Part shown: positions 1 to 28,382 of the stretch, piece by piece | Numbering within the stretch: position 1 is the first letter of the stretch | Layout: each line of letters opens with the position of its first letter | Source of the DNA: a phage | Strand: one strand, 5' to 3' | DNA: 52,259 nt | Assembly (NCBI GenBank): GCA_025325205.1 | Contig: GCA_025325205.1_4770.1 | Notes under the pieces: generated by a model | Seen by the model: the letters and a program-made list of their open reading frames with translations, nothing else | Database searches by the model: none | What the model was told of the DNA's origin: nothing | Translations under genes and position numbers: made by a program

Positions 1-53
1 TGAGAATAAAGACTATATTCCAATCCCAGTTCGGCGACACTTATAACCCCTTA

Positions 54-488
54 CTATGCCATGTGGATACCCGCGAGCAAGACTTCATCAGAATAAGGTT
101 GTACACCGTTCTCATGTTTAATAATCGCTTTCACGATCGCAAGCATGAGCTTATCATCGGTCAATGAAATCGGCTGTTCTGCACCAACACCACAAGCCTT
201 AGACACAGATTGAATATAGGCTTCAGTGTTATTTTCATTCGGCGGAGCCCAGCGTGAAATAATTTCCCGTACAGTGTCAATTCCCTTATTACCGACGCGC
301 TTCATCCCTTCGCGGTTGCGGTAGTTTAGTAGAATACGCGCAATGGCGCGAATACCGTATTTTACATCGATAAATTGACAGAAAGAACGGTCAGTTCGTT
401 TATCTTCTGGAACAAGACCTTTCCAGTTATCACCCCAACGAATATTTCCAGGATTGTTATTCCGGATGCCTCGTGGTTGCACAGTCAT
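54..488 (-). CDS. putative endolysin (peptidoglycan hydrolase), family not assignable by eye
   Basis: 144-aa ORF, last gene of a minus-strand block with an overlapped spanin pair directly upstream; call rests on gene context only. Confidence 0.3.
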   Translation of the reverse strand: MTVQPRGIRNNNPGNIRWGDNWKGLVPEDKRTDRSFCQFIDVKYGIRAIARILLNYRNREGMKRVGNKGIDTVREIISRWAPPNENNTEAYIQSVSKACGVGAEQPISLTDDKLMLAIVKAIIKHENGVQPYSDEVLLAGIHMA

Positions 489-579
489 AAAAAAGCTCCA
501 TTCAGTTAAACCGAATAGAGCATAGTTGAATTATCACACGCGCACAATCAATTATGTGCGATTAAGATTGAACGTTTAG

Positions 580-924
580 TTACGCAATCCGGCAAGGACT
601 TTGCAGTTTATCACCTTTCTTTATGCGGATTTCGCATTGCATCATATTGTAGTTCGCACTGCTCGCCGGCAAGACGATACTTTTCAGCCTCTTCTGCCAC
701 TTGTCTGTATTCTGTGACGCTTTCTGAATACAGCTCGGTGAGCACACGGGCGATCTGGGCGGTTGTCTTGCTGTCGGGCTGAGGGCCGGTAGCGTCACCG
801 AGGTACTTACGGATGGTTGCGATTTCGTTGTGCAACCTGTCATTAGTAGCACGATAATCATTAAGATCGGCAACCAAAGACTCAATGCGAGATTGGTACT
901 GGCGTTCGATAACGTCTTTCTCAT
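580..924 (-). CDS. o-spanin (Rz1-like outer-membrane lipoprotein) in alternate frame overlapping the i-spanin gene
   Basis: Internal ATG (reverse complement of cat at 922-924) gives MRKTLSNASTNLALSLWLPILMIIVLLMTG-C: basic n-region, hydrophobic core, lipobox-like MTGC, then Pro/Ser-rich mature part; frame differs from 611-1111 and runs past its stop. Confidence 0.45.
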   Translation of the reverse strand: MRKTLSNASTNLALSLWLPILMIIVLLMTGCTTKSQPSVSTSVTLPALSPTARQPPRSPVCSPSCIQKASQNTDKWQKRLKSIVLPASSANYNMMQCEIRIKKGDKLQSPCRIA

Positions 925-1111
925 ATGCTCTTCGTTTCTCCTCCTCGAAATCAACCGCTTTCTGAGTTTCTTTTTGGTACGACACACCGGCATCGAAACC
1001 CTCCTTTCTAGCTGTTTCTATGGCATTGTCATAAGCCCAGTTGGCTAGAATAACAATTAGGACAAGTGGTATCCAAGGTGCAACCAAACCGATTATTTTT
1101 CTAAGGAACAT
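611..1111 (-). CDS. i-spanin (Rz-like)
   Basis: 166 aa; N-terminal hydrophobic helix (IIGLVAPWIPLVLIVILANWA) followed by charged, coiled-coil-like periplasmic region; contains the o-spanin ORF in another frame. Confidence 0.5.
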   Translation of the reverse strand: MFLRKIIGLVAPWIPLVLIVILANWAYDNAIETARKEGFDAGVSYQKETQKAVDFEEEKRRAYEKDVIERQYQSRIESLVADLNDYRATNDRLHNEIATIRKYLGDATGPQPDSKTTAQIARVLTELYSESVTEYRQVAEEAEKYRLAGEQCELQYDAMRNPHKER

Positions 1112-1320
1112 ACCTTCTCACCAATTCCCATAGACAAGTATTGAATCGCAAGAAGAAATGCTATAGCTTCCTTCGTATCCCCTAAGTCTTTAAAGGCCTT
1201 GAATTTATCTTCAAGTTGCTGTACGTGCTTCTCGAATTGTGGCAAGGCCTCAATCTCAGCGGCAGCTCCGCGCATATACACTCTTGCAGCCGCTAATTGT
1301 GCGTTAGAAGGATCACTCAT
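1093..1320 (-). CDS. hypothetical protein (possible holin/antiholin-type small protein)
   Basis: 75-aa ORF directly upstream of spanins; one hydrophobic stretch (AIAFLLAIQYLSMGIG); ATGA-type overlap with upstream ORF. Confidence 0.3.
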   Translation of the reverse strand: MSDPSNAQLAAARVYMRGAAAEIEALPQFEKHVQQLEDKFKAFKDLGDTKEAIAFLLAIQYLSMGIGEKVCSLEK

Positions 1321-1532
1321 GATGTTCTCCAGATTACACTATTTCGAATTTCATCATTCCAAACGTATTTCCCCTTCTCACCATTTTTATAGGATGGAAC
1401 AGAGAAAACGGAGGAACTTGGATATAGATCTGATGTTGTTAAGCGTATACGCTTACCGTCAAAAGGTCCACCAACACAAAGGAACAGACCAGTCTTAGGT
1501 TTCTTCAAAATGGTTCCTCCTCTGTTGTACAC
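1317..1532 (-). CDS. hypothetical protein
   Basis: 71-aa ORF filling the gap between neighbouring minus-strand genes; no motif recognised. Confidence 0.25.
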   Translation of the reverse strand: MYNRGGTILKKPKTGLFLCVGGPFDGKRIRLTTSDLYPSSSVFSVPSYKNGEKGKYVWNDEIRNSVIWRTS

Positions 1533-1999
1533 TGAGCCATTTTAAGAGTATAAGCTACGTCATAGAAGTCAACACCTTGACCACAGCTATCGCAGTAGTG
1601 GCAGGCCAATCTCACAGCCTCTTCTGCGCCGCGACCTGCCGCCATTGTACCCATCAAGAACTCAAAGGCACTACCCTCGGCAATAAATTCATTAGTGTCT
1701 GGTAGACCTAATTTACCATCCCCATAGATAGGATACACGACAAGTTCCTGCGTCACTGCAATACCATAACGCGAATCCGGAATTAAATCAGAGAAAGGTT
1801 CTTTACGACCACGAACCGTAGTTTTCAGATGTTCTACAATGTCACTTACAGGACGTAGTTTACCAGACATTGCAACAAGGCACAGTCCAATCCCTGGAAT
1901 ATTGACAGTATGAACTTTATCTGTAGTTGTTGCAATATTACCCCATGTAACCTGACGATCTACTGCCAATATACCATTACGATAAGCAATTGCGGTCAT
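1505..1999 (-). CDS. putative HslV/proteasome-like Ntn-hydrolase (threonine peptidase family)
   Basis: Starts MTAIAYRNGILAVDRQVTWGN, resembling the HslV N-terminus (Met-Thr then hydrophobic strand, RNG, GDxQ/TxGN pattern) as I recall it; Gly-rich GSAFEF...AAGRGAEEA segment later. Confidence 0.35.
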   Translation of the reverse strand: MTAIAYRNGILAVDRQVTWGNIATTTDKVHTVNIPGIGLCLVAMSGKLRPVSDIVEHLKTTVRGRKEPFSDLIPDSRYGIAVTQELVVYPIYGDGKLGLPDTNEFIAEGSAFEFLMGTMAAGRGAEEAVRLACHYCDSCGQGVDFYDVAYTLKMAQCTTEEEPF

Positions 2000-2349
2000 A
2001 TTAAACGCCCATATATGTGATAAATTTTATAAGCAGTGGAAAGACCAATATTAAATTCTTTCGCTGCAACCTGAAATCTATTCTCTTTACCAGTGTAATT
2101 TCTAAGAAATTGATAAATTTCCTCTTTATCCAAGTGCCTGTTTCGCACAAGTGTAGTGGACCCAAGCCGGCGCATTTCGAGCGTAGCCGCGAATCTTCGC
2201 TTGATCTGAGCTACTGTACCAACGTACCAATACTTTGCCCCATTTTGCCCAATAGCCGCGTGGACGCATCGCGGCGTACCTGTTTTAGCGAACTTGCGCT
2301 TTGCAAATTCACACGCGAGTTCCGCATTGTCAAAACGTTGCAAGCCCAT
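1996..2349 (-). CDS. hypothetical protein (weak GIY-YIG-like signature plus C-terminal helix-turn-helix-like segment)
   Basis: 117 aa; AKYWYVGTVAQIKRR resembles the YIG..R half of GIY-YIG motifs; assignment uncertain. Confidence 0.3.
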   Translation of the reverse strand: MGLQRFDNAELACEFAKRKFAKTGTPRCVHAAIGQNGAKYWYVGTVAQIKRRFAATLEMRRLGSTTLVRNRHLDKEEIYQFLRNYTGKENRFQVAAKEFNIGLSTAYKIYHIYGRLI

Positions 2350-2352
2350 AAA

Positions 2353-2793
2353 TCACCCCGGCAATATAATTTCGTAATCAATCAGGAAAGACCGCAGAGG
2401 ATACGCCAGATCGTTACCCTCTGCAACGTGGTCATAGGAATAGTATTGTTTCCCTTGCAGACCTTTACACGGGTCGTATACCTTAACATCACCGAAGCGA
2501 GCGTCAATAATGATCTGATGGAAAAGTCCAGGTAACTGCAAAGAGGGTACAGTCGCAAGATACAAGCGCCCAGGTCGAATTTGGTGCATACCGGCAGTGA
2601 TATGCGGCTGTGCAAAGACACCGTGCTTATACAGATAGTTCGACACGTCAGTAAAACCATGAATATAATCATTTGTGAACTCGTCATATACCTGCTCAGG
2701 GTCTTTGTCAAGAAGCATAGCAAGGCAGGTAGGGATGCAAGCCATTATACTTTTCTGAGTTTTATGCTTGATTGGATCGTTGATAGTAATCAT
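2353..2793 (-). CDS. putative papain-fold cysteine peptidase (C39-like)
   Basis: 146 aa; N-terminal ACIPTCLAMLL resembles the C39 nucleophile motif (DCGxACLxMI); downstream His residues (YIHGF, YDHVAEG). Confidence 0.35.
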   Translation of the reverse strand: MITINDPIKHKTQKSIMACIPTCLAMLLDKDPEQVYDEFTNDYIHGFTDVSNYLYKHGVFAQPHITAGMHQIRPGRLYLATVPSLQLPGLFHQIIIDARFGDVKVYDPCKGLQGKQYYSYDHVAEGNDLAYPLRSFLIDYEIILPG

Positions 2794-3131
2794 TAGAACA
2801 CTTCCTTAAACAAATCAAATTTAACATGCTCGTAGATTTTATTCAGCTGAGTTAGCTTGCGAATAAATTCTTTACTGGTATTCTCGTCAATTGCACAGGT
2901 ATCCGTCTGGATCTTCCATGTATCAGAACGCAAACGTAGCAAGAATGAACCGTTCGGATAAACCGTCTTCGCTTCTGGCATATAGTGCAGAATGCAGGAT
3001 ATTGTTCCTTCAGGTGGTATAAGAACAATATAAGTATCATTCACGTCGCTGTGACTAATAATCCAACCGCTCTGTAGTAAAGTATCGCGGAGCTGGCAAT
3101 ACATTTTCGGAATAACGATATCTTTGGCCAT
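2793..3131 (-). CDS. hypothetical protein
   Basis: 112-aa ORF, start/stop overlap with neighbours (operon-like packing). Confidence 0.35.
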   Translation of the reverse strand: MAKDIVIPKMYCQLRDTLLQSGWIISHSDVNDTYIVLIPPEGTISCILHYMPEAKTVYPNGSFLLRLRSDTWKIQTDTCAIDENTSKEFIRKLTQLNKIYEHVKFDLFKEVF

Positions 3132-3496
3132 TATTGCACTTCCACAATTAACAATTCACCATGACGTTCACGAGCGAGATTATATAAATCTTGTTTCTGC
3201 TCAATACTTAATTCGCAGTCAAGAATGGCAATATCACAATGGAAGCCACTCGTACGAATAACAGTGTCTTCATACGAGTCTCTGCGATGAGCAACCAAAC
3301 GAAGGTGGAAACGATCAAACTGTACCACAGATGACTCGCGCGACAGTTGTACACACCGAACGAACTCAGGATCTTCGCGCAACACTTCTTCGAGCTTCCT
3401 GCGATATTCGTTAGCAGGACATAAAACAAAAGCTACGCGATCGTCTTTCAGCTGTGGTCGTAAGATAGACCAGGCTTTAACTATATTCTCGTTCAT
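3131..3496 (-). CDS. hypothetical protein
   Basis: 121-aa ORF, first gene of the minus-strand block, upstream of a long noncoding region. Confidence 0.4.
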   Translation of the reverse strand: MNENIVKAWSILRPQLKDDRVAFVLCPANEYRRKLEEVLREDPEFVRCVQLSRESSVVQFDRFHLRLVAHRRDSYEDTVIRTSGFHCDIAILDCELSIEQKQDLYNLARERHGELLIVEVQ

Positions 3497-3997
3497 ATAA
3501 ACCCCTTTAACGTTAACGGAATAACTATAACAGGATACGCAAGTTGATTAACATAGCCGGCCGCAACAATTAATAACCACAGTTAACTGTCTCGTGTGCT
3601 TTAAATCTTGTGCGGCAGAATCAGTTACACATACCAGAAACCGAATCTTGTAAACTCATCTCGAGTATTTACATACGGAATTAACTTTATACGAACAATA
3701 TAGGGCAGGTGAGGTGAGGATATAAAGTGTCTAGTGACGAGATAATCTACAAACGATGAATCCTTGGCAGAGATCTAAGAGCCGCCCGCGGCGTTACTAT
3801 AACGTCCCGTGATCGTCAGTGAGGTGATTGTTACGCCATGTGACTGTTACTTGTTCTATTGTTATGTTGTTTATTGTTACACGCGTTATTATTTTTTATT
3901 TGATTAGTATACTATCTATTACAGGACTATACTATAATGTCCAGTATAATTACGTCTGTTACTATCCACCTGCCCACTATGTGCTGTCTATGTATGT

Positions 3998-4066
3998 GCT
4001 ACCTGGTATTTCCTGCGCGTGCTGTTACCTGGTATTTTCAGCACACTCGCGCTACCTGGTATTTCC
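3998..4066. repeat. three direct repeats of G(C/T)TACCTGGTATTT(C/T)C with 26-27 bp period
   Basis: Copies at 3998-4013, 4024-4039, 4051-4066 read directly from sequence; lies in the divergent intergenic region between minus-strand and plus-strand gene blocks. Confidence 0.8.
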
Positions 4067-4150
4067 GGCACACCGTCTACCGTATAGTCCCGGATGTTAT
4101 TATTATTATGAAACACAACTAAAAAAGTTCTAAAATAATGCAGATAATAG

Positions 4151-4179
4151 TTGCATCTGATACCCTGTTGTCATACTAT
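4151..4179 (+). promoter_or_regulatory. candidate sigma70 promoter (TTGCAT-N17-TACTAT)
   Basis: -35 TTGCAT 4151-4156, 17-nt spacer, -10 TACTAT 4174-4179, about 75 nt upstream of the first plus-strand early gene with AAGGGAG RBS. Confidence 0.4.
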
Positions 4180-4254
4180 AACTGCGTAGGGTAAAGGGGG
4201 TTTTAAAGCGGGACACGGGTTCCGCGCCCGCCTCACCCGAAGGGAGATTGCATT

Positions 4255-4560
4255 ATGTCCATTATCTACTTACCGCGTTCTATGTCCCAGTCACAGATCA
4301 CCAAACGTATTATCGGCAAGCGCCTGCACCAACTGGGCCTTACTGCGGAAAAGGTTGACGGGGATTGGGGTTTCGACGAGTATCTGGTAATGCTCCCGGG
4401 CAACGAAAAGTATTCCAGCACCGCGTTATATATTCGCATTAACGAGGACGGCACTGTCAGCTCTTATAGCGTAATGTACGGTCGACCAGTATGCCAAGCG
4501 AATAGCCTTTGGTCTGTGTTCTGCTTTATTACAATGATAGCTAAAGCTATCCAACAATAA
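4255..4560 (+). CDS. hypothetical early protein (paralog family with 6177-6434)
   Basis: 101 aa; N-terminal SQSQITKRIIGKR shared with ORF 6177-6434 (SMITRRIIGKR); good RBS. Confidence 0.45.
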   Translation: MSIIYLPRSMSQSQITKRIIGKRLHQLGLTAEKVDGDWGFDEYLVMLPGNEKYSSTALYIRINEDGTVSSYSVMYGRPVCQANSLWSVFCFITMIAKAIQQ

Positions 4561-4636
4561 TAGCGTGCTAATGGTTGCCCATTGTTACAGTGGGCTCCCA
4601 CTAGCAATCCGCTAGAACAACATGGAGATATTCACA

Positions 4637-5116
4637 ATGGTTACTATCACCCGCGTAGCAAAAGACGCTCGCTTCTTTGCCACTATGTCTAACGCTCGCC
4701 GTGCCTTAAAAAAGGTTCTGGATGTGGACACTGCGACAGCTAACAGCTTTATTCACCAGGAACCGCACGAGGACGGTGGTCGCTACTGGTACAGCGAAAG
4801 CGCGGTTAATAAGGCAGCTAGCGATCTGGTTGAAGCTGATAAAGCGACTGTCGTGGAAGTGACCACACAACCAGCTCCAACCGATCCCGCTAAAAGCAAA
4901 ACACGCAGCGAAACGCGCAACGGGGTCCGCCGCCCAATTAAAGGTAAATGCGCAGACGTTTGGAACGCTCTGGATAATATGTTGCCTAATGGTGTGCCAA
5001 CTATTGGTAACGTCCGTGACCTTGCGAAAGCTAATGGTTGGAATATTAATAATGCAACGATTGAATTCTACGCATGGCGTAAATTCCACGGGCTCAATAA
5101 TAAAGGGGGCAACTAA
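4637..5116 (+). CDS. hypothetical protein
   Basis: ORF 4622-5116; start chosen at ATG 4637 preceded by GGAG (4624-4627); no motif recognised. Confidence 0.4.
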   Translation: MVTITRVAKDARFFATMSNARRALKKVLDVDTATANSFIHQEPHEDGGRYWYSESAVNKAASDLVEADKATVVEVTTQPAPTDPAKSKTRSETRNGVRRPIKGKCADVWNALDNMLPNGVPTIGNVRDLAKANGWNINNATIEFYAWRKFHGLNNKGGN

Positions 5117-5118
5117 TT

Positions 5119-5193
5119 ATGTTCTACTTATTAGCTTTCTTGGTGTTCGGTGCTCCAATAGTTGCGGGCCTTTATTATACGGAGGGCAAATAA
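5119..5193 (+). CDS. candidate 24-aa hydrophobic micro-protein (MFYLLAFLVFGAPIVAGLYYTEGK)
   Basis: ATG 5119 with GGGGG upstream; single predicted TM-like segment; below the ORF-track length cutoff; its 3' end carries the RBS of the next gene. Confidence 0.2.
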   Translation: MFYLLAFLVFGAPIVAGLYYTEGK

Positions 5194-5194
5194 T

Positions 5195-5380
5195 ATGGAA
5201 ACTATAGTTCTATACTGCTGGGTTGACCTGGACGAACACGAATATTGCGTGAATATTAACAACGGACCAGTCCCGGACGCAACTTTCGCATCCTATGACG
5301 AAATGGATGCGTATGTAAAAGGTTTCCGCGAGTGCGCTCGCATTGCAAATATTAACGTGACTGTAATTTTACCGGAATGA
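5195..5380 (+). CDS. hypothetical protein
   Basis: ORF 5162-5380, start chosen at ATG 5195 following GGAGGG RBS. Confidence 0.35.
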   Translation: METIVLYCWVDLDEHEYCVNINNGPVPDATFASYDEMDAYVKGFRECARIANINVTVILPE

Positions 5381-5652
5381 TTATCATGCGTAAACCTAAC
5401 CAAAATTCTTTCGTTGAAATGGCTCGTGTTGTTCTCAACCGTCAGTCCTTCTACCTGTACCACCGTCACGAGTTTGATCTGTGGACTGAAGAGGAAACGT
5501 GCTGCCAGTACGAGATCCATACCCGGAATGGTGTAATATTCACTTCCAGTAATTATCCGGAAGTTAAAGAATACTGGGACAAGCTGATCGCTGAAGCGTA
5601 TGTTGAATTCCAGAAGCAAACTATTTACCCAATGGGCCTTCGCGCTGAGTGA
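5377..5652 (+). CDS. hypothetical protein
   Basis: 91-aa ORF; ATGA start/stop overlap with upstream gene. Confidence 0.4.
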   Translation: MIIMRKPNQNSFVEMARVVLNRQSFYLYHRHEFDLWTEEETCCQYEIHTRNGVIFTSSNYPEVKEYWDKLIAEAYVEFQKQTIYPMGLRAE

Positions 5653-5687
5653 TTATTAACGGCAACATAATTTAAGGAGTGACTATC

Positions 5688-5807
5688 ATGGCTCAAGCTA
5701 TTATCACAAAATTCGTCAACCCGACAGCCGCTCGCGCTCCGCGCGTAAAAGCAACAGGCTGGAACGGTTCTGTAACTATCACATGGCGGGACGATCTGGG
5801 CGTTTAA
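5688..5807 (+). CDS. small ORF (39 aa) terminated by TAA that is followed in frame by a further 41 open codons
   Basis: AAGGAG RBS 5674-5679, ATG 5688; TAA at 5805-5807; downstream in-frame segment 5808-5930 has no ATG/GTG/TTG start. Confidence 0.3.
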   Translation: MAQAIITKFVNPTAARAPRVKATGWNGSVTITWRDDLGV

Positions 5808-5943
5808 GGCAACCACCGCTCCGCAGCGGAGGAGCTGATCAATAAGTTTAATGCTAAAGCGGGCGTTGAATTTGAGATCCTTGCTGGTGGTGAGCTCCCG
5901 GATCAAAGTGGTTACGCGTTTATTGTTCAATAAGGGGATAATT

Positions 5944-6108
5944 ATGGAACGCAACTATTTCCAGGTTATTTATCGCGGTCGTTGCTATCACATCCGCAAC
6001 AAGTTTCGCAACCTGTCCCGCGATCAACTTGAATACGCTATTAATCTGGTGAGTGATGGTCACTTCGCTACACTATCAGAAGCGTTAGAATATGTGTCCG
6101 CTGAGTGA
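5944..6108 (+). CDS. hypothetical protein
   Basis: ORF 5851-6108; start chosen at ATG 5944 after AAGGGG RBS. Confidence 0.35.
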   Translation: MERNYFQVIYRGRCYHIRNKFRNLSRDQLEYAINLVSDGHFATLSEALEYVSAE

Positions 6109-6176
6109 CATATATATTGCCCATAGTAACAGTGGGCAATAATATGCACTTCGCATAGTTAACTGAGGAAACTATT

Positions 6177-6434
6177 ATGTCTACAACATTAAACCAGTCA
6201 ATGATCACCCGTCGCATTATCGGCAAACGTATAGCTAATCTTGCGACTATCACCGCAGAGCTGGAAACTTTCGGTAATAACGCGCGCAAATATCGCGTCC
6301 GTTGCAATGGTCTTAACGTTTATTTAACAGTGTTCGACGACGGTAAAGTTCACGCGGAACTGCATACTATGGGCCGCCTGGTTGCAACCGCGTCCACGCT
6401 GGTGGGCTTCATCAACCTGTTAAAAAACTGCTAA
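6177..6434 (+). CDS. hypothetical early protein (paralog of 4255-4560)
   Basis: 85 aa; shares N-terminal ITRRIIGKR motif and EDG/DDGKV segment with ORF 4255-4560. Confidence 0.45.
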   Translation: MSTTLNQSMITRRIIGKRIANLATITAELETFGNNARKYRVRCNGLNVYLTVFDDGKVHAELHTMGRLVATASTLVGFINLLKNC

Positions 6435-6463
6435 CTTTTAAAATTGTAACGGAGATAAATAAT

Positions 6464-6712
6464 ATGAACGCTATCCATGTAAAAGCACTAGCACCGACTC
6501 AATCCAAAGGTATGCGCTTCAAAGCAGTCGGCCTCGGTATGTGTGCAGTAACTGCAAACGACTACAACCTCAACAGTGAAGCGAACGCCGCTGCCGCTGC
6601 CCAGGAGTTACTAGATAACTACAACATGCAGAACCAGTCGCTTCAACTTAAAATACTTGGAGTTGGTACGCTTCCAGATAATACCTGGGCGGTACTATTA
6701 ACTTGTAAATAA
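6464..6712 (+). CDS. hypothetical protein
   Basis: 82-aa ORF with RBS, followed by a terminator. Confidence 0.4.
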   Translation: MNAIHVKALAPTQSKGMRFKAVGLGMCAVTANDYNLNSEANAAAAAQELLDNYNMQNQSLQLKILGVGTLPDNTWAVLLTCK

Positions 6713-6735
6713 CTTCTAACTGCATTATACAATCC

Positions 6736-6772
6736 GCGCCCTGTTGAAGTCCAACGGGGCGCTTTCGTTTTT
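6736..6772 (+). terminator. rho-independent terminator
   Basis: GCGCCC (6736-6741) / GGGCGC (6757-6762) stem with TTTCGTTTTT tail, directly after the early gene block. Confidence 0.6.
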
Positions 6773-6904
6773 GTACCCGCACCACTTCCCGCGTTACCCT
6801 GCTGACCACATGTTACTCACCCATTCCTCCACCATTCGCGCTCTAAGAACCTAACTCCTTCCTCCATACATTACCATTGACTCCAATTTAATCGCCTTAT
6901 ACGC

Positions 6905-7062
6905 CCTTACAGCGATCCACTCCCTGCTTCCCTGTACGCGATTTTGGGGCATTTTCGCCCCTCACTGCCACCCTTACACTGATCCAACCGCTTTATCGCG
7001 CTACGTGCCCCGTTTTCGCGGCTATTTTCGCTTTATGGGCGACCCGCTACACCGATCCCAGC
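6905..7062. repeat. three spaced copies of a GATC-containing motif ACA(G/C)(C/T)GATCC plus TTTTCGC repeats in a noncoding region
   Basis: GATC at 6914-6917, 6981-6984, 7054-7057 each inside the conserved 10-13 nt motif; no ORF with RBS in this region. Confidence 0.6.
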
Positions 7063-7516
7063 CACCCAACCTCACCGAAAGCCACCTTTCACCGAAAAAT
7101 CCGACATTTATACCATAAAATAGAATCGTTTTCGGGCTACAAAAATTCAAACTCAAAAATCCGATTCACTTCGAGAGTCACTTCAACAAAAATCGCTTGC
7201 AATCCAGTTTTCTTTTGTGTTAGACCGCGTGCCCGCATTATGCGCGTGCGCGAGCTTGTGAGCGCCTCGTTGTTGCGCAACAAATATTTCTTATATTGTT
7301 CGTATATTTTCGCTTAATATACGAAATGAAAGGAGGTAAGTGCATGAAAAATAAGGTAAAAATGTGTATGTGTGTGTATTTATATAAATTTTATAAAGAT
7401 TTTTTATTTTTGAGTTGTCTACTGACGACCCCCACGAGACCCCTTTATAAATAATATAAGAAATAAATTTCGCAACATTGCCAAATTTCCCCTTTAAAAA
7501 CAAGCATTTCAGTATC

Positions 7517-7587
7517 GTGTTAATTTATTGTTAAAAACCTATAAATTGTTAATTTATATTTAAAGCATGTTAAATTTGTTAAATATA
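7517..7587. repeat. five TGTTAA(T/A)(T/A)T repeats in an AT-rich stretch
   Basis: tgttaatttat, ttgttaaaaac, ttgttaatttat, tgttaaatttg, ttgttaaatat read from sequence. Confidence 0.6.
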
Positions 7588-7616
7588 CCCTTCAGACTGT
7601 TGTAATTTTTTGCAAA

Positions 7617-7683
7617 AGCAAAAACTTTGCATATACAAAACACCGCAAAACATCACAGTTGCAAATAGCAAAAACTTTGCATA
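7617..7683 (+). promoter_or_regulatory. two copies of 17-bp element AGCAAAAACTTTGCATA (inverted-repeat core GCAAA-N3-TTTGC) overlapping candidate -35/-10 hexamers
   Basis: Copies at 7617-7633 and 7667-7683; TTGCAA/TTGCAT hexamers within; lies about 60-130 nt upstream of the first gene of the replication block (7745). Confidence 0.45.
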
Positions 7684-7744
7684 AATTAAAACTTGGCAAC
7701 TGAATTTCAAAATCATTCGATTTATTATTATCAAGGGTGAGGTT

Positions 7745-8365
7745 ATGCGCAATCGTAAAATTGAAATAACACACGCACACGTACAAGAAATGTTCGGTTA
7801 CGACGAAGTCATGTACGCCAAAGCGGTAGCCATATTGGAGCAACATAACGACAGCCTAAGTAATGTGGTCAAAGCGTGGAAGGAGGCTGGCCTCGTGTTG
7901 CGGCCGAATGCGGTCAAGACGCTGGACGATGGGCGGACGTATATGTGCTGGTCGGCTCCGATGCTGGGTATGATGTTCACTATCGACATCTACTTCGGGT
8001 ACTGGTTGTTAGATGTGGATTGTGTGATTCCGCTCGACAAGTATATGCACAGTAAAGGGTTCAACAGTTGCTTTGACGTTTGCCCTGACACGGAAGGCAA
8101 CGGTGTTATGATCCTGGGCTTTAAGTGGGTAGACGATAAGTGTGAAATACGGCCGCTGCGATATCCACGTGGTAAAGCGCGTCGTGCGTATATCGAAGAT
8201 GGTGTTGTTCGCTGGTGCAATGTAACGAAGCGTCGGATGAGCACTGACCACATTGCGTATATCAAAGATGGCCTCGTTAGACTTCAGACGAATAATAGTG
8301 GTAATGTGCAGTTACAGCAAGAATTGCAAGAACTCATTGAATACATTGATCAGTTCGGAGCGTGA
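7745..8365 (+). CDS. hypothetical protein
   Basis: 206-aa ORF with AAGGGTGAGG RBS; no motif recognised. Confidence 0.45.
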   Translation: MRNRKIEITHAHVQEMFGYDEVMYAKAVAILEQHNDSLSNVVKAWKEAGLVLRPNAVKTLDDGRTYMCWSAPMLGMMFTIDIYFGYWLLDVDCVIPLDKYMHSKGFNSCFDVCPDTEGNGVMILGFKWVDDKCEIRPLRYPRGKARRAYIEDGVVRWCNVTKRRMSTDHIAYIKDGLVRLQTNNSGNVQLQQELQELIEYIDQFGA

Positions 8366-10362: not shown

Positions 10363-12912
10363 ATGCTGGAACTTTTTCCTCAAGAAATTAAACAATACGA
10401 ACAGTGGGCTGTCTGCGGTTTCCATCCAGGTACATCATCAGAAAAACAACCTTATGTGTGGGACGATGATTTAGGGGATATGGTCCCACTTCGTAAAGAC
10501 GGCAACGATAAAAAACCGTCTAATTTGCATTTACTAATGTCCTTTGAAGATGCGGAACGTTGTATTCGTTACTATAACGAAATCGGTCATAATCTGCGTT
10601 TAGGTTTCTATCTACTTCCAAGTGATCCGTTCTGTTGTATAGACATGGATATTAAAGACACCATGTCTGAAATGGAAAAGAAAGTTGCTGGTGAGCGATA
10701 TAAGAAGATTGTTGAATCGTTCCACAGTTATACGGAGATTTCCAGAAGTGGTGATGGGTTACACACATGGATTTATTCCATCCCTCAAGCTGGTAAGCGC
10801 CGTGATGGTGTGGAAGTGTATTCCCAGTATCGTTTTATTATCTGTACAGGGGATCACTGGGATATTACTCCGCGCACTGTGTCTGGTGCTCCAGGTAGTG
10901 AAAGCGAAGGGTATATCGCTAATCTCATTCATCAACTTATGTCTGAGATGAGTGAGATTAATGAGTGTGATGGCTTCCAAATGCTGGAACTTACTGAAGA
11001 AGATTTTAGTAACGACCCATATGCAATGGAAGACCAGGATGTCTATATCCAGTTGTGTGAACAAGAAAACGGAACATTGTTTAAGCAGCTATGGGAAGGT
11101 CGTTGGAGAGCTGAAGAAGTTGATACTTCTATCGGTGAACGTTGTTTCCCTTCTCAGTCTGAAGCAGAGTTTGCATTAATTGACTTTCTTTGCTTTAAGA
11201 GTAAGTACAATTTCCAGGTAAGACGTCTGTTCATGTATTCACCAATGAGTAGTCGTTACGATGATTCCCGTCGTCTGCCCGGTGAAAAAATCAAACGTCC
11301 TTATCACCTGGATAGAATGATTCGCAACTATCGCTATGACGCCCATGTTAAATCTATGGGACTTATGCAGATAGTTCAGAATAACGTTAATGCAGCTATA
11401 GAGCGCACGGAAAAACTGCGTCAAGCAACTACACCAGAACGCCCACCTGAAGAAGTGTTGACCACAGATGGTAATTACACTGAGGAGCAAGCGGACGGTT
11501 TAGCCTGGCCTCCGGGCTTTATGGGCGAGGTTGCGCGTAACATGTATAAAGCGAGCTTGTTGCCTATTAAAGACATTAGTATTCTGTCTGCTCTTGCTTT
11601 ATTTAGTGGTATGTGCGGTAAGGCGTGGAACACGGTTACACGAAGTGGTCTGAACAACTACTTTGTATTAATTGCACGTTCTGGTATTGGTAAAGAAGCA
11701 TTTCGCTCTAACATTGAAACAATTCTTTCTCAGGTTTCCAATTATGGCGGTCAGGACGGGCAACAGATATTCGGTATTGAACGTGTTTTAGATACCAGTA
11801 CCTATGCGTCTGATGCTGCATTGCGCAAAGACGTCATAATGGATACGTCTGTTATGTCTTGTGGCTCATCCATTAACTATAAGACTGAAGTCGGTGCGTT
11901 TTTCCGTAACGGTAAGATGGAAGTTGGTAAAGCTAAAGACATTATGGATGAAATGCTTTCCCTTTATGATAAAGGACATTTCTATGCTTTCTCTGGTGGT
12001 TCAAAGCACTCTAGCAAAGATAATACGACCGCTGGTGGTAAAGTCAAGGCGTATAGTTTTGCAGGTGAAACAACACCAGATGAATTTTATGGGAACGTTG
12101 ATGACCGCATGATGTCAAGTGGTTTCATGTCTCGTATTATTGCATGGGAATGTACAGCTAACCGCCCACTCATGAATAAGAGTATGCTCCTGGAATATCC
12201 GGAAGCAATTCTGCGGACTATTGGAGCTATCTATAAACAAGCTGTGCGTATTATGTCAGGGACTGCTCCATGTTATGTTGAAATGGAAGCAGAGGTACAC
12301 GAAGCGTTTGATAACCTTGATAATGTTGTCGCGAAGTTCCTGAATAGCGGTAATGACGGTGAACAGGTACAGGATGAAGTAATCCGTCAGATGTACACAA
12401 GGAAGGCGTTGAAGGTATTGCGTATCGCCTCCCTTCTTGCTGTAGCAGATAACAGTGAGCGTCCTGTTGTTACTATGGAACATTATCGTTGGGCTGAGTC
12501 ATTTATTGATCAGGGTAACGAGCGTTTCTTAGAGAAGCGTAATAGTGGGCTGATTGGGTCTACAGATAGTACCAGTCGTGAGAAAATAATGCTCAACTCT
12601 ATCAAGAAGTTCTTGGATGGGGAAGTTAAAGCTGGTGTGTATAAACGGTTCCCAATGTTTAAGGACGCGTTTATTGTCACACGAAGTGATCTATGCACAG
12701 TATGTCGCCAGTTCAAGGCTTTTAAACAAACAAGAAATGACAACATCTTGCAGGTCATAGACAACACAATTTATGGTTTGATGTCCATGGAAGTTCTTAC
12801 TGAGATGAGGCCAATGGACTTTTCAAGTTTCTTCGGTGCAGAGTTTACACCACCGAGGATGAAATGTTATTTGGTGGACATTGAGAGAATGAACGAAGTT
12901 ATTAAGTTATAA
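10363..12912 (+). CDS. DNA primase-polymerase (archaeo-eukaryotic primase superfamily) with large C-terminal domain
   Basis: AEP motifs in order: CCIDMDIKD (hhhDxD), SRSGDGLHTWIY (sGxGxH), FIICTGDHWD; C-terminal region has only a degenerate P-loop-like SGIGKE, so helicase activity is not supported. Confidence 0.6.
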   Translation: MLELFPQEIKQYEQWAVCGFHPGTSSEKQPYVWDDDLGDMVPLRKDGNDKKPSNLHLLMSFEDAERCIRYYNEIGHNLRLGFYLLPSDPFCCIDMDIKDTMSEMEKKVAGERYKKIVESFHSYTEISRSGDGLHTWIYSIPQAGKRRDGVEVYSQYRFIICTGDHWDITPRTVSGAPGSESEGYIANLIHQLMSEMSEINECDGFQMLELTEEDFSNDPYAMEDQDVYIQLCEQENGTLFKQLWEGRWRAEEVDTSIGERCFPSQSEAEFALIDFLCFKSKYNFQVRRLFMYSPMSSRYDDSRRLPGEKIKRPYHLDRMIRNYRYDAHVKSMGLMQIVQNNVNAAIERTEKLRQATTPERPPEEVLTTDGNYTEEQADGLAWPPGFMGEVARNMYKASLLPIKDISILSALALFSGMCGKAWNTVTRSGLNNYFVLIARSGIGKEAFRSNIETILSQVSNYGGQDGQQIFGIERVLDTSTYASDAALRKDVIMDTSVMSCGSSINYKTEVGAFFRNGKMEVGKAKDIMDEMLSLYDKGHFYAFSGGSKHSSKDNTTAGGKVKAYSFAGETTPDEFYGNVDDRMMSSGFMSRIIAWECTANRPLMNKSMLLEYPEAILRTIGAIYKQAVRIMSGTAPCYVEMEAEVHEAFDNLDNVVAKFLNSGNDGEQVQDEVIRQMYTRKALKVLRIASLLAVADNSERPVVTMEHYRWAESFIDQGNERFLEKRNSGLIGSTDSTSREKIMLNSIKKFLDGEVKAGVYKRFPMFKDAFIVTRSDLCTVCRQFKAFKQTRNDNILQVIDNTIYGLMSMEVLTEMRPMDFSSFFGAEFTPPRMKCYLVDIERMNEVIKL

Positions 12913-26966: not shown

Positions 26967-28382
26967 ATGTGCTCTATCTTTGGTGTTATTACTAACGGTC
27001 AACCTGAAAGTCTTATCATTCGTAACGATATCAACGATCTCATTAAAGCTAGTGTCAACCGTGGTCGTGATGGTCTTGGTGTACGCTTTACGCATGGTGA
27101 CCACAGTATGCACCCGCAACGTATCGTCAGCGTCGGTAAAGAAACATCGATGGAACGTCTTGTTAAAGTGGGGCGCATTGCATCTCACGCTGGAGCTATT
27201 GGCAGCTTCACGATGATTGGTAACGCTCGTGCTGAACCGACTACAGAATGGGTCGTTGACAAGAGCGAGTGGGACCAGCAACCATATCACCTCGATGGTT
27301 GGACTATTGTTCATAACGGTACTATTGCGAACGATAAAGACCTTCGCACCTATGCACTACAAACTAAGATCGATAGTGCTGCAATTGTTGAACAGTTAGC
27401 AGAATGCACACTTTCAAATGATGAAACATGTTTAACTGACTTTAACTACCTGTATAGTGTGTTTCACGAAGTTGTTCGTAAACTGAAAGGGAGTTACGCA
27501 ATTCTTGCGACACATGATTCATTCCCTGGATGCGTGTTTGCAGCATGTAACTATCGTCCGATTTGGATTGGCCAGACTAATACTGGTATGTATTTCGCCA
27601 GCCAGGAAGATATGTTACCGACCAGCGCAACTAAGCGGATGTTGAAACCTTACTCATGTAGTGTGGTTACAGCTACAGATGTACAAAATGAAGTTGATCT
27701 TATTCCAAATAAGCAGACTCAACGTGCGTTAGTTGTCGCCAGTGGTGGTATGGACAGTACGGTGGCAGCTCAGATGTGCAAGTCCAATGGTTTAGATGTC
27801 ACTCTCATTAACTTCCAGTATGGTTGTCGTGCAGAAACTAATGAGTTAAAGGCTATTCGTAAGATTGCGGAAGTAATGGAAGTTCCGTTAGTTGAGTTCC
27901 CAATCCCAATTTACGATAAGAAAGACAGCCCGTTATTTGATCAAGACGCTGCAATTGCTGGTGGCGAAGAAGGTGCTGAGTTTGCCCATGAATGGGTTCC
28001 AGCTCGTAACCTTGTAATGCTTTCTGTTGCTACTGCATACGCAGAAGCTAACGGTTTCGACTATATTGTTCTTGGTAACAACTTAGAAGAAGCTGGAGCC
28101 TATCCGGACAACGAGCCTGAGTTTATTAACCGCTTTAATCAGGTGCTACCATTCGCTGTAGGCGACGGTAAGCGCGTTGAAGTGCTCATGCCAGTAGGTA
28201 ACTTAATGAAGCACGAAATTGTCGCTACAGGCCTACGTTTAGGGGCCCCGCTTGAGCACACCTGGAGCTGTTACCGTAACGGGGATTTGCATTGTGGTAC
28301 TTGTGGCCCTTGCATGATGCGTCGGACTGCGTTTAATATTAATAACGCACAAGAAGTTATTAAATACGAAAGCGAGGAATAA
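26967..28382 (+). CDS. queC: glutamine amidotransferase-QueC fusion (7-cyano-7-deazaguanine synthase-like with N-terminal class-II GATase)
   Basis: Begins MCSIFGV (Ntn Cys after Met, asparagine-synthetase-like); central ALVVASGGMDSTVAAQMC PP-loop (SGGxDS); C-terminal WSCYRNGDLHCGTCGPCMMR Zn-Cys cluster typical of QueC. Confidence 0.7.
   Translation: MCSIFGVITNGQPESLIIRNDINDLIKASVNRGRDGLGVRFTHGDHSMHPQRIVSVGKETSMERLVKVGRIASHAGAIGSFTMIGNARAEPTTEWVVDKSEWDQQPYHLDGWTIVHNGTIANDKDLRTYALQTKIDSAAIVEQLAECTLSNDETCLTDFNYLYSVFHEVVRKLKGSYAILATHDSFPGCVFAACNYRPIWIGQTNTGMYFASQEDMLPTSATKRMLKPYSCSVVTATDVQNEVDLIPNKQTQRALVVASGGMDSTVAAQMCKSNGLDVTLINFQYGCRAETNELKAIRKIAEVMEVPLVEFPIPIYDKKDSPLFDQDAAIAGGEEGAEFAHEWVPARNLVMLSVATAYAEANGFDYIVLGNNLEEAGAYPDNEPEFINRFNQVLPFAVGDGKRVEVLMPVGNLMKHEIVATGLRLGAPLEHTWSCYRNGDLHCGTCGPCMMRRTAFNINNAQEVIKYESEE

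Follow-up and report, generated by a model that had tools for sequence, protein, structure and literature searches.

A gene-free region that probably straddles the inner end of the long terminal repeat in a 9g-like phage genome

What is a stretch of about 1 kb doing in a phage genome where, between the early gene block and the replication block, no gene is found? This question is raised by positions 6780-7744 of a phage contig of 52,259 nt (GCA_025325205.1_4770.1, NCBI GenBank assembly GCA_025325205.1), the whole of which is called the window here and provides all coordinates. An earlier note, made from the sequence alone, had proposed a candidate replication origin and regulatory hub. Our analysis points to a composite region in which a long direct terminal repeat (DTR) meets the unique DNA of a Nonagvirus and which combines a terminator, end-forming signals and a downstream control region; we put the probability of this interpretation at roughly 60%. 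Its best-supported feature is the DTR boundary itself, which the earlier note had overlooked.

The window contains most of the genome of a 9g-like siphovirus (Nonagvirus, subfamily Queuovirinae), since the region 6700-7760 matches Nonagvirus records only, i.e. 18 phage records at 84-89% identity, which include phage 9g, JenP1, JenP2, JenK1, SE1, HdK1, HdSG1, BRET and the BASEL phages Bas19 and Bas20. Genes run leftward from 1 to 3496, rightward from 4255 to 34109 and mostly leftward from 34447 to the end of the window. The last early gene stops at 6712 and the next gene starts with an ATG at 7745. That the interval is gene-free was borne out, with no credible open reading frame (ORF) in 6713-7744 and a non-coding region at this place in all 14 Nonagvirus records as well as in two Klebsiella Queuovirinae; the ORFs 7005-7118 and 7022-7156 are broken by a 1-nt indel among relatives.

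The evidence for a boundary inside this region comes from relatives. HdK1 and HdSG1 were deposited as linear records of 64.1 and 63.6 kb, each of which was matched twice by the region query, and in these records (MK373794 and MK373795) the two ends are exact direct copies of each other over 3367 and 3363 bp, respectively. As points of linearisation, their authors chose the places at which the majority of reads broke off abruptly (PMC6563267). Read in window orientation, the repeat begins at the transition from CAGAGATCTAA to GAGCCGCC; in HdK1 it ends with GACGACCCC(C)ACGAGACCCCTTTAT, just before AAA, and in HdSG1 it ends 3 nt further on. The left repeat end of both phages coincides, to the nucleotide, with position 28243 of phage 9g, a read-start hotspot that was taken as the left physical end of that genome (PMC4276943), and as 9g reads also cross this position, a terminal repeat of unknown size had been inferred there (PMC4276943). 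Thus, the left end is identical in three phages, with the 9g hotspot coming from a different laboratory and sequencing platform than the HdK1 and HdSG1 records. A DTR has also been determined in the related Queuovirinae phage iggy, where it measures 1091 bp and the TerL protein clusters with Nonagvirus TerLs (PMC10484667).

Both boundary sequences are found nearly identical in the window, the left one at 3779, which is the equivalent of the 9g hotspot, and the right one at 7448, where GACCCCTTTAT ends. A DTR of about 3670 bp (3779-7448) is therefore predicted, which would hold all of the small early genes and thus provide two copies of them per virion. Identical sequence at both virion ends is on record for the relatives HdK1 and HdSG1 only; the corresponding right boundary in the window falls inside the gene-free region and is marked by conserved sequence, with identity to relatives at 0.94-0.96 up to 7449 and at 0.56-0.60 beyond this position in a 14-genome alignment. 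As mapped in this way, the gene-free region would be split into a repeat tail (6780-7448), present at both virion ends, and unique DNA (7449-7744), and the phage would presumably have the same DNA ends as HdK1 and HdSG1.

A short sequence ties the two ends together. When one mismatch is allowed, the 13-mer TGTCTA(C/G)TGACGA is found just twice in 52 kb, both times on the + strand and each time shortly before one of the two DTR ends (table 1). The 38-nt offset of the left copy is constant in every Nonagvirus examined, and this copy differs from the right one by one mismatch in most relatives, by two in JenP2 and by three in HdK1, with the right copy being invariant in all relatives as well as in the IMG/VR contig L038. 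In the Klebsiella Queuovirinae an exact 13-mer is accompanied by a degenerate copy ahead of the homologue of the left end, and in PD328, SE1 and SP8 a third copy is found inside their allele of the variable cassette listed in table 1. Given the right copy, the probability that a second one, with no more than one mismatch, falls by chance into the 60 nt upstream of the other end is estimated at approximately 4e-5. By its placement, the 13-mer is a candidate terminus-specifying signal, which may be recognised by the machinery that generates the ends.

We propose that these elements operate together as follows. The DTR-borne early operon would stop at the intrinsic terminator, with the C-rich unstructured stretch that follows possibly serving as a Rho-dependent backstop. 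The last approximately 500 nt of the DTR would form a conserved non-coding platform, the final 150 nt of which are near-invariant and run up to the presumed virion DNA end at 7448-7451. The 13-mer upstream of both DTR ends may help to guide the packaging machinery to the sites where concatemers are cut at either end, in the style of T7 and T5. Past the boundary, approximately 300 nt of unique AT-rich DNA carry the TTGCA array and what may be the promoter of the operon beginning at 7745.

Table 1. Coordinates of features in and around the gene-free region (positions in the window).
Feature	Position	Strand	Details
Predicted direct terminal repeat	3779-7448		~3670 bp; early genes 4255-6712 plus ~735 nt of untranslated region
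Left 13-mer TGTCTAGTGACGA	3728-3740	+	38 nt before left genome end; pairs with 7416-7428; outside gene-free region
Intrinsic terminator of DTR-borne early operon	6736-6772	+	11-pair stem (8 G-C), then TTTCGTTTTT
C-rich stretch	6780-7100	+	C 40%, G 14%; unstructured as RNA
TCACCGAAA	7072-7080, 7089-7097	+	within C-rich stretch
Cross-genus core	7114-7226	+	CATAAAATAGAATCGTTTT 7114-7132; AATCGCTTGCAATCC 7191-7205
Candidate rightward promoter in core	TTGCAA 7197-7202, TG 7218-7219, TAGACC 7221-7226	+	inferred from sequence
Variable cassette	7228-7296		three unrelated alleles among Nonagviruses; palindrome TTGTTGCGCAACAA 7269-7282 in window allele
Near-invariant block of ~150 nt	7297-7451	+	ends at DTR boundary; contains 13-mer and GAGACCCCTTTAT
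Right 13-mer TGTCTACTGACGA	7416-7428	+	19-20 nt before DTR boundary
Inner (right) DTR boundary, predicted right virion DNA end	7448-7451		after 7448 per HdK1, after 7451 per HdSG1
AT-rich unique stretch	7452-7600	+	variable; 19-23% G+C; TGTTAA x5 (7518-7582)
TTGCA-type box array	7609-7699	+	six boxes, 16-18-nt period: 7610, 7627, 7643, 7659, 7677, 7693
Candidate sigma-70 promoter	TTGCAA 7659-7664, 17 nt, TAAATT 7682-7687	+	inferred; 8/12 matches
Ribosome-binding site AAGGGTGAGG plus ATG	7732-7747	+	first gene of downstream operon, 206 aa, phrog_18014

Several points weigh against this interpretation. The right boundary is known only from two GenBank records of the same laboratory, which differ by 3 nt, and the 9g paper gives a single read-start hotspot, i.e. 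the left one, with the repeat left unsized (PMC4276943); a right end of lower precision would fit this single hotspot as well. When contigs ending at a boundary were sought, none of the four related metagenome contigs did so, and neither the source contig nor the viral contigs gave evidence for ends at the repeat boundaries. The distances of the two 13-mers to their cuts, 38 nt versus 20 nt, differ, and a simple measuring (ruler) mechanism therefore does not fit. The consensus scan flagged neither of the two candidate promoters (7197-7226 and 7659-7687), which for this reason are kept as candidates only.

Some further observations concern the ends themselves. Coverage of 9g rises sharply at the left end and is approximately 1.5-fold higher throughout the early half of the genome (PMC4276943), and this excess is explained neither by a 3-kb terminal repeat nor by our other results. 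Genes for HNH homing endonucleases adjoin both repeat boundaries in different phages, at 3896-4369 in JenP1 and at 3536-4015 in HdK1, the latter at a distance of approximately 170 nt from the left end, on its outer side. Between 3688-3702 and 7292-7306 there is a perfect inverted repeat of 15 nt, which was discarded as probably fortuitous, because its right arm is poorly conserved, with 0-5 mismatches, and an inverted 8-mer inside both ends (ACTGACGA and TCGTCAGT) was not significant by our estimate.

Upstream of the boundary, the gene-free region is entered through the terminator, where a G+C-rich hairpin and a T tract coincide with the end of the early operon. This element is annotated as a terminator in the HdK1, HdSG1 and SP8 records, and the Klebsiella phages have kept its hairpin with a stem that differs in sequence. 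In JenP1, the gene for the HNH endonuclease replaces the terminator and the first approximately 245 nt of the region, both of which are therefore dispensable. The C-rich stretch that follows is essentially unstructured when folded (-2.8 kcal/mol over 121 nt), and its C-rich composition is shared by the Klebsiella phages despite their diverged sequence. Thus composed, 6780-7100 could be a Rho-loading site that backs up the terminator.

The early proteins of the window, none of which exceeds 164 aa, have no Pfam hit and match only PHROGs of unknown function; when regulators, initiators and A1/A2 proteins were sought by Pfam and PHROGs among the early and the first middle proteins, no function could be assigned, and Pfam detected no DNA-binding domain in the proteins flanking the gene-free region. 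The first and the sixth early proteins (4255-4560 and 6177-6434) are paralogues that both belong to phrog_13865, and hence there has been an internal gene duplication within the terminal repeat. The orthologue of 9g gp36 at 5688-5930 (80% identical by tblastn) is paralogous to the 82-aa protein encoded at 6464-6712 and shows an in-frame TAA approximately 40 codons in (...DDLGV*GNHR...), so that either the gene is interrupted in this phage or the assembly contains an error; a 'TetR' note on 9g gp36 found no support in Pfam. The terminal repeat also contains an accessory gene, the 91-aa ORF at 5377-5652, for which PHROGs gave no match and which only about one-quarter of the relatives possess. 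Within the left portion of the DTR, upstream of the first early gene, three TACCTGGTATTTCC-like 21-mers with a spacing of 26-27 nt (4000-4073) could be operators or parts of early-region promoters.

Conservation across the untranslated region is approximately 0.9 in the 14-genome alignment, about equal to that of the flanking genes, with nearly invariant blocks at 6944-7228 and 7297-7451. The idea of a regulatory hub has held up well in this respect, as the region is non-coding, about as conserved as its neighbours and equipped with a terminator and promoter-like elements. The two Klebsiella Queuovirinae share this layout, with five early genes followed by approximately 1250 nt without genes, and their sequence has in common with the window region only the core at 7114-7132 and 7191-7222. 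The candidate promoter in this core, which is conserved across genera, would read across the DTR boundary. No further copies of the two core sequences (7114-7132 and 7191-7205) or of the 17-mer described below were found elsewhere in the genome, and these three were therefore rejected as dispersed promoter or operator motifs. The two Klebsiella phages have a seven-copy array of their own with a 15-nt period; in one of them, vB_Kpn2-P2 (PP848851), the homologous gene-free region contains seven tandem copies of TAATNGTTAGC at 4869-4970 with a spacing of 14-15 nt, plus one further copy at 5320, i.e. at the homologue of the Nonagvirus repeat boundary; this array is confined to the Klebsiella phage lineage. 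The three alleles of the variable cassette, which separates the two conserved blocks, fold no better than shuffles.

The near-invariant block at 7297-7451 also contains a 10-bp hairpin (7299-7325), a Shine-Dalgarno sequence plus ATG (7329-7347), an alternating purine-pyrimidine run and A/T tracts, and one may ask whether it represents a small unannotated protein, starting with the ATG at 7345 behind a strong Shine-Dalgarno sequence, or a structured non-coding RNA. Indeed, AAAGGAGGT and the ATG that follows it are nearly invariant among relatives (TTG in 9g), a candidate promoter is located upstream at 7197-7226, and 7296-7445 is the only segment that folds better than shuffles (z = -2.8), in a stretch that varies very little among relatives. 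However, the ORF that begins at this ATG differs in length from relative to relative (14, 35, 36, 67 or 87 aa), as 1-nt indels alter its frame, with frameshifts setting in after codon 6, and a hidden protein gene was rejected on these grounds. As to a structured RNA, Rfam gave nothing credible, either at the gathering score for the whole window or at E-values up to 10 for the region, the consensus fold of 7100-7300 across genera amounts to -4.9 kcal/mol with a negligible covariation term, and the hairpin at 7299-7325 is broken in 9g without compensation; a search for tRNA and tmRNA found none. Taken together, this alternative is hardly credible.

The sequence just past the boundary is variable in all phages compared. 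The window version of 7465-7590 with its TGTTAA repeats is absent from all of the approximately 19 relatives examined, relatives carry two 28-nt repeats there (ATCTTTATAAATTGTGCA...), and a BLAST search with the window-specific block 7440-7610 gave no match. The earlier note had listed five TGTTAA(T/A)(T/A)T repeats in this part; five TGTTAA boxes do exist (at 7518, 7529, 7547, 7568 and 7577), only three of which fit the full 9-mer. Located 70-130 nt past the right boundary, they resemble four TGTTA(C/T) boxes with a 15-16-nt period at 3829-3875, i.e. 50-96 nt inside the left genome end, and since the right array is specific to this phage, it may stem from an exchange with the left flank. The heptamer ATTGTTA has five of its 15 window copies within these two arrays.

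Further downstream, the two 17-mers AGCAAAAACTTTGCATA (7617-7633 and 7667-7683), previously interpreted as operator sites, were found where described; they belong, however, to the degenerate 17-nt-period array of six TTGCA-type boxes that covers 7610-7699. Tandem Repeats Finder (TRF) assigned to this array a 17-nt period and 5.4 copies with only 57% matches, with the six TTGCA cores being conserved. By our own reading, TTGCA-type boxes also occur in the alternative allele of HdK1, ESCO3 and HdSG1. Metagenome matches to the 17-mer were mostly due to chance. The promoter candidate at 7659-7687, as judged from its hexamers, would serve the operon that starts at 7745.

An important question is whether the region is, or also contains, a replication origin, which would be compatible with a DTR junction. 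In such an origin, the TTGCA array or other repeats would bind an initiator, possibly the downstream AEP primase-helicase, and the AT-rich DNA would unwind. The repeat families on which the proposal was built are present: the three copies of ACA(G/C)(C/T)GATCC (6909-6918, 6976-6985 and 7049-7058) are the only ones in the window, TTTTCGC at 6952, 7013, 7025 and 7307 accounts for four of its eight + strand copies, and CACCGAAA occurs at 7073 and 7090. Overall, direct repeats exceed dinucleotide-preserving shuffles 2-3-fold (k = 7-8), with 0.3-1% of the shuffles reaching the observed value. The division into a GC-richer and an AT-rich part is likewise real (53% G+C at 6780-7100 versus 26-30% at 7297-7744), and the G+C minimum of the whole window falls within 7292-7691 whether it is taken over 100, 200 or 400 nt. 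The GC-skew analysis that had been recommended places the global minimum of the cumulative G-C curve at 7718. Here, genes after 7745 show positive skew, whereas the early genes to the left, which are also on the + strand, have zero or negative skew, so that the inflection is not simply a switch in the direction of transcription. Moreover, the region is located upstream of replication genes, including that for the AEP primase-helicase (10363-12912), an AEP prim-pol plus DUF3987 protein, and the TTGCA boxes with their 16-18-nt period have similar boxes in a second allele.

Yet the more specific marks of an origin are missing from the region. Among three DnaA boxes (TTWTNCACA) in the window none is located here, and an initiator linked to the repeats was not identified. 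The supposed clustering of GATC sites did not withstand a count, because with 169 such sites in 52 kb the three found in 965 nt are just what is expected; notable is the 10-mer that carries them rather than GATC frequency, and these motifs are 67-73 nt apart with GATC being lost in some relatives. The TGTTAA repeats are confined to this phage, and of the 249 units that make up the skew minimum, the C-rich block alone accounts for approximately 100. In addition, low G+C and a skew minimum are also expected of a promoter region or a genome-end region, and the region at the repeat junction of T5, which has a similar wealth of repeats, is not regarded as the origin (bioRxiv 10.1101/866236). With iteron-type origins, such as lambda ori, plasmid origins or P4 ori/crr, the region shares clustered short direct repeats that adjoin the most AT-rich DNA and the skew minimum; its boxes, however, are 5-6-nt cores in a degenerate 17-nt unit, with no linked initiator or DnaA boxes. 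On balance, an origin at this place is possible but unlikely.

With the junction of DTR and unique DNA as the preferred interpretation, the region becomes of use beyond this phage. In Queuovirinae, whose DNA carries deazaguanine modifications, genome ends and cis-acting signals have barely been described, and most database records of these phages are arbitrarily linearised or marked circular. In the papers searched, we found no description of the gene-free region or of Nonagvirus repeat boundaries, and a literature search for Nonagvirus termini, PhageTerm results and transcription starts turned up only three papers, those on 9g and iggy and that of Korf et al. The boundary at 7448-7451 together with the shared 13-mer offers a concrete coordinate system for annotating these phages as well as a candidate packaging signal. 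It also illustrates that phage regions that are rich in repeats and AT and coincide with a skew minimum need not be origins.

The closest architectural analogue of the region is Repeat Region 3 of phage T5, which is 1.2 kb long, untranslated and located mostly in the left terminal repeat, from which it overruns by 270 bp into unique DNA (bioRxiv 10.1101/866236). It is more conserved than the ORFs of the repeat, has HNH insertions nearby and is believed to contain the signal at which injection stops (bioRxiv 10.1101/866236). In both phages, an untranslated, repeat-rich block of approximately 1 kb is found downstream of repeat-borne early genes, straddles the inner boundary of the left repeat (with approximately 735 nt inside the DTR and about 296 nt beyond it here), is conserved among relatives and tolerates HNH insertions, as seen here with JenP1. 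In contrast to T5, however, the terminal repeat measures 3.7 kb rather than 10 kb, and the region shows no sequence similarity to T5. As the DnaA boxes and the A1/A2 proteins that define it are absent, the region is not a member of the T5 family.

This parallel to the T5 pre-early region raises the question of staged DNA entry. The untranslated block might be a T5-like injection-stop signal, with the repeat and its early genes entering first and the rest following once early proteins have acted. The architecture just described, the location of all early genes inside the DTR and the HNH gene inserted in JenP1 as in the T5 region would fit this scenario. On the other hand, T5 has eight DnaA boxes in its region, paired in inverted repeats, where none are present here, A1- or A2-like pre-early proteins were not found with Pfam and PHROGs, sequence similarity to T5 is lacking and two-step entry was not reported for 9g-like phages in the papers searched. 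We therefore see only a slim chance for a T5-like stop signal. A 9g-like variant of staged delivery that does without DnaA boxes, in which the approximately 3.7-kb repeat with its 7-8 early genes would enter first, the untranslated block would act as a cis-acting pause or stop and the 13-mer would serve both entry and end formation, has a slimmer chance still.

A second known system that bears on the junction is the T7 concatemer junction, where, according to what is reportedly described by Dunn and Studier in 1983, the terminal repeat is flanked by short repeat arrays and by promoters for replication and packaging. The T7 repeat is 160 bp long and without genes, whereas the repeat predicted here covers 3.7 kb and carries genes; furthermore, this phage has no promoters for a single-subunit RNA polymerase, and its right-hand array is not conserved in relatives. 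As in T7, however, defined ends would yield a direct terminal repeat, repeat arrays adjoin both boundaries, and promoter-like elements as well as AT-rich DNA are present at the junction. The region is a new and reasonably well-defined example of a known feature of phage genomes.

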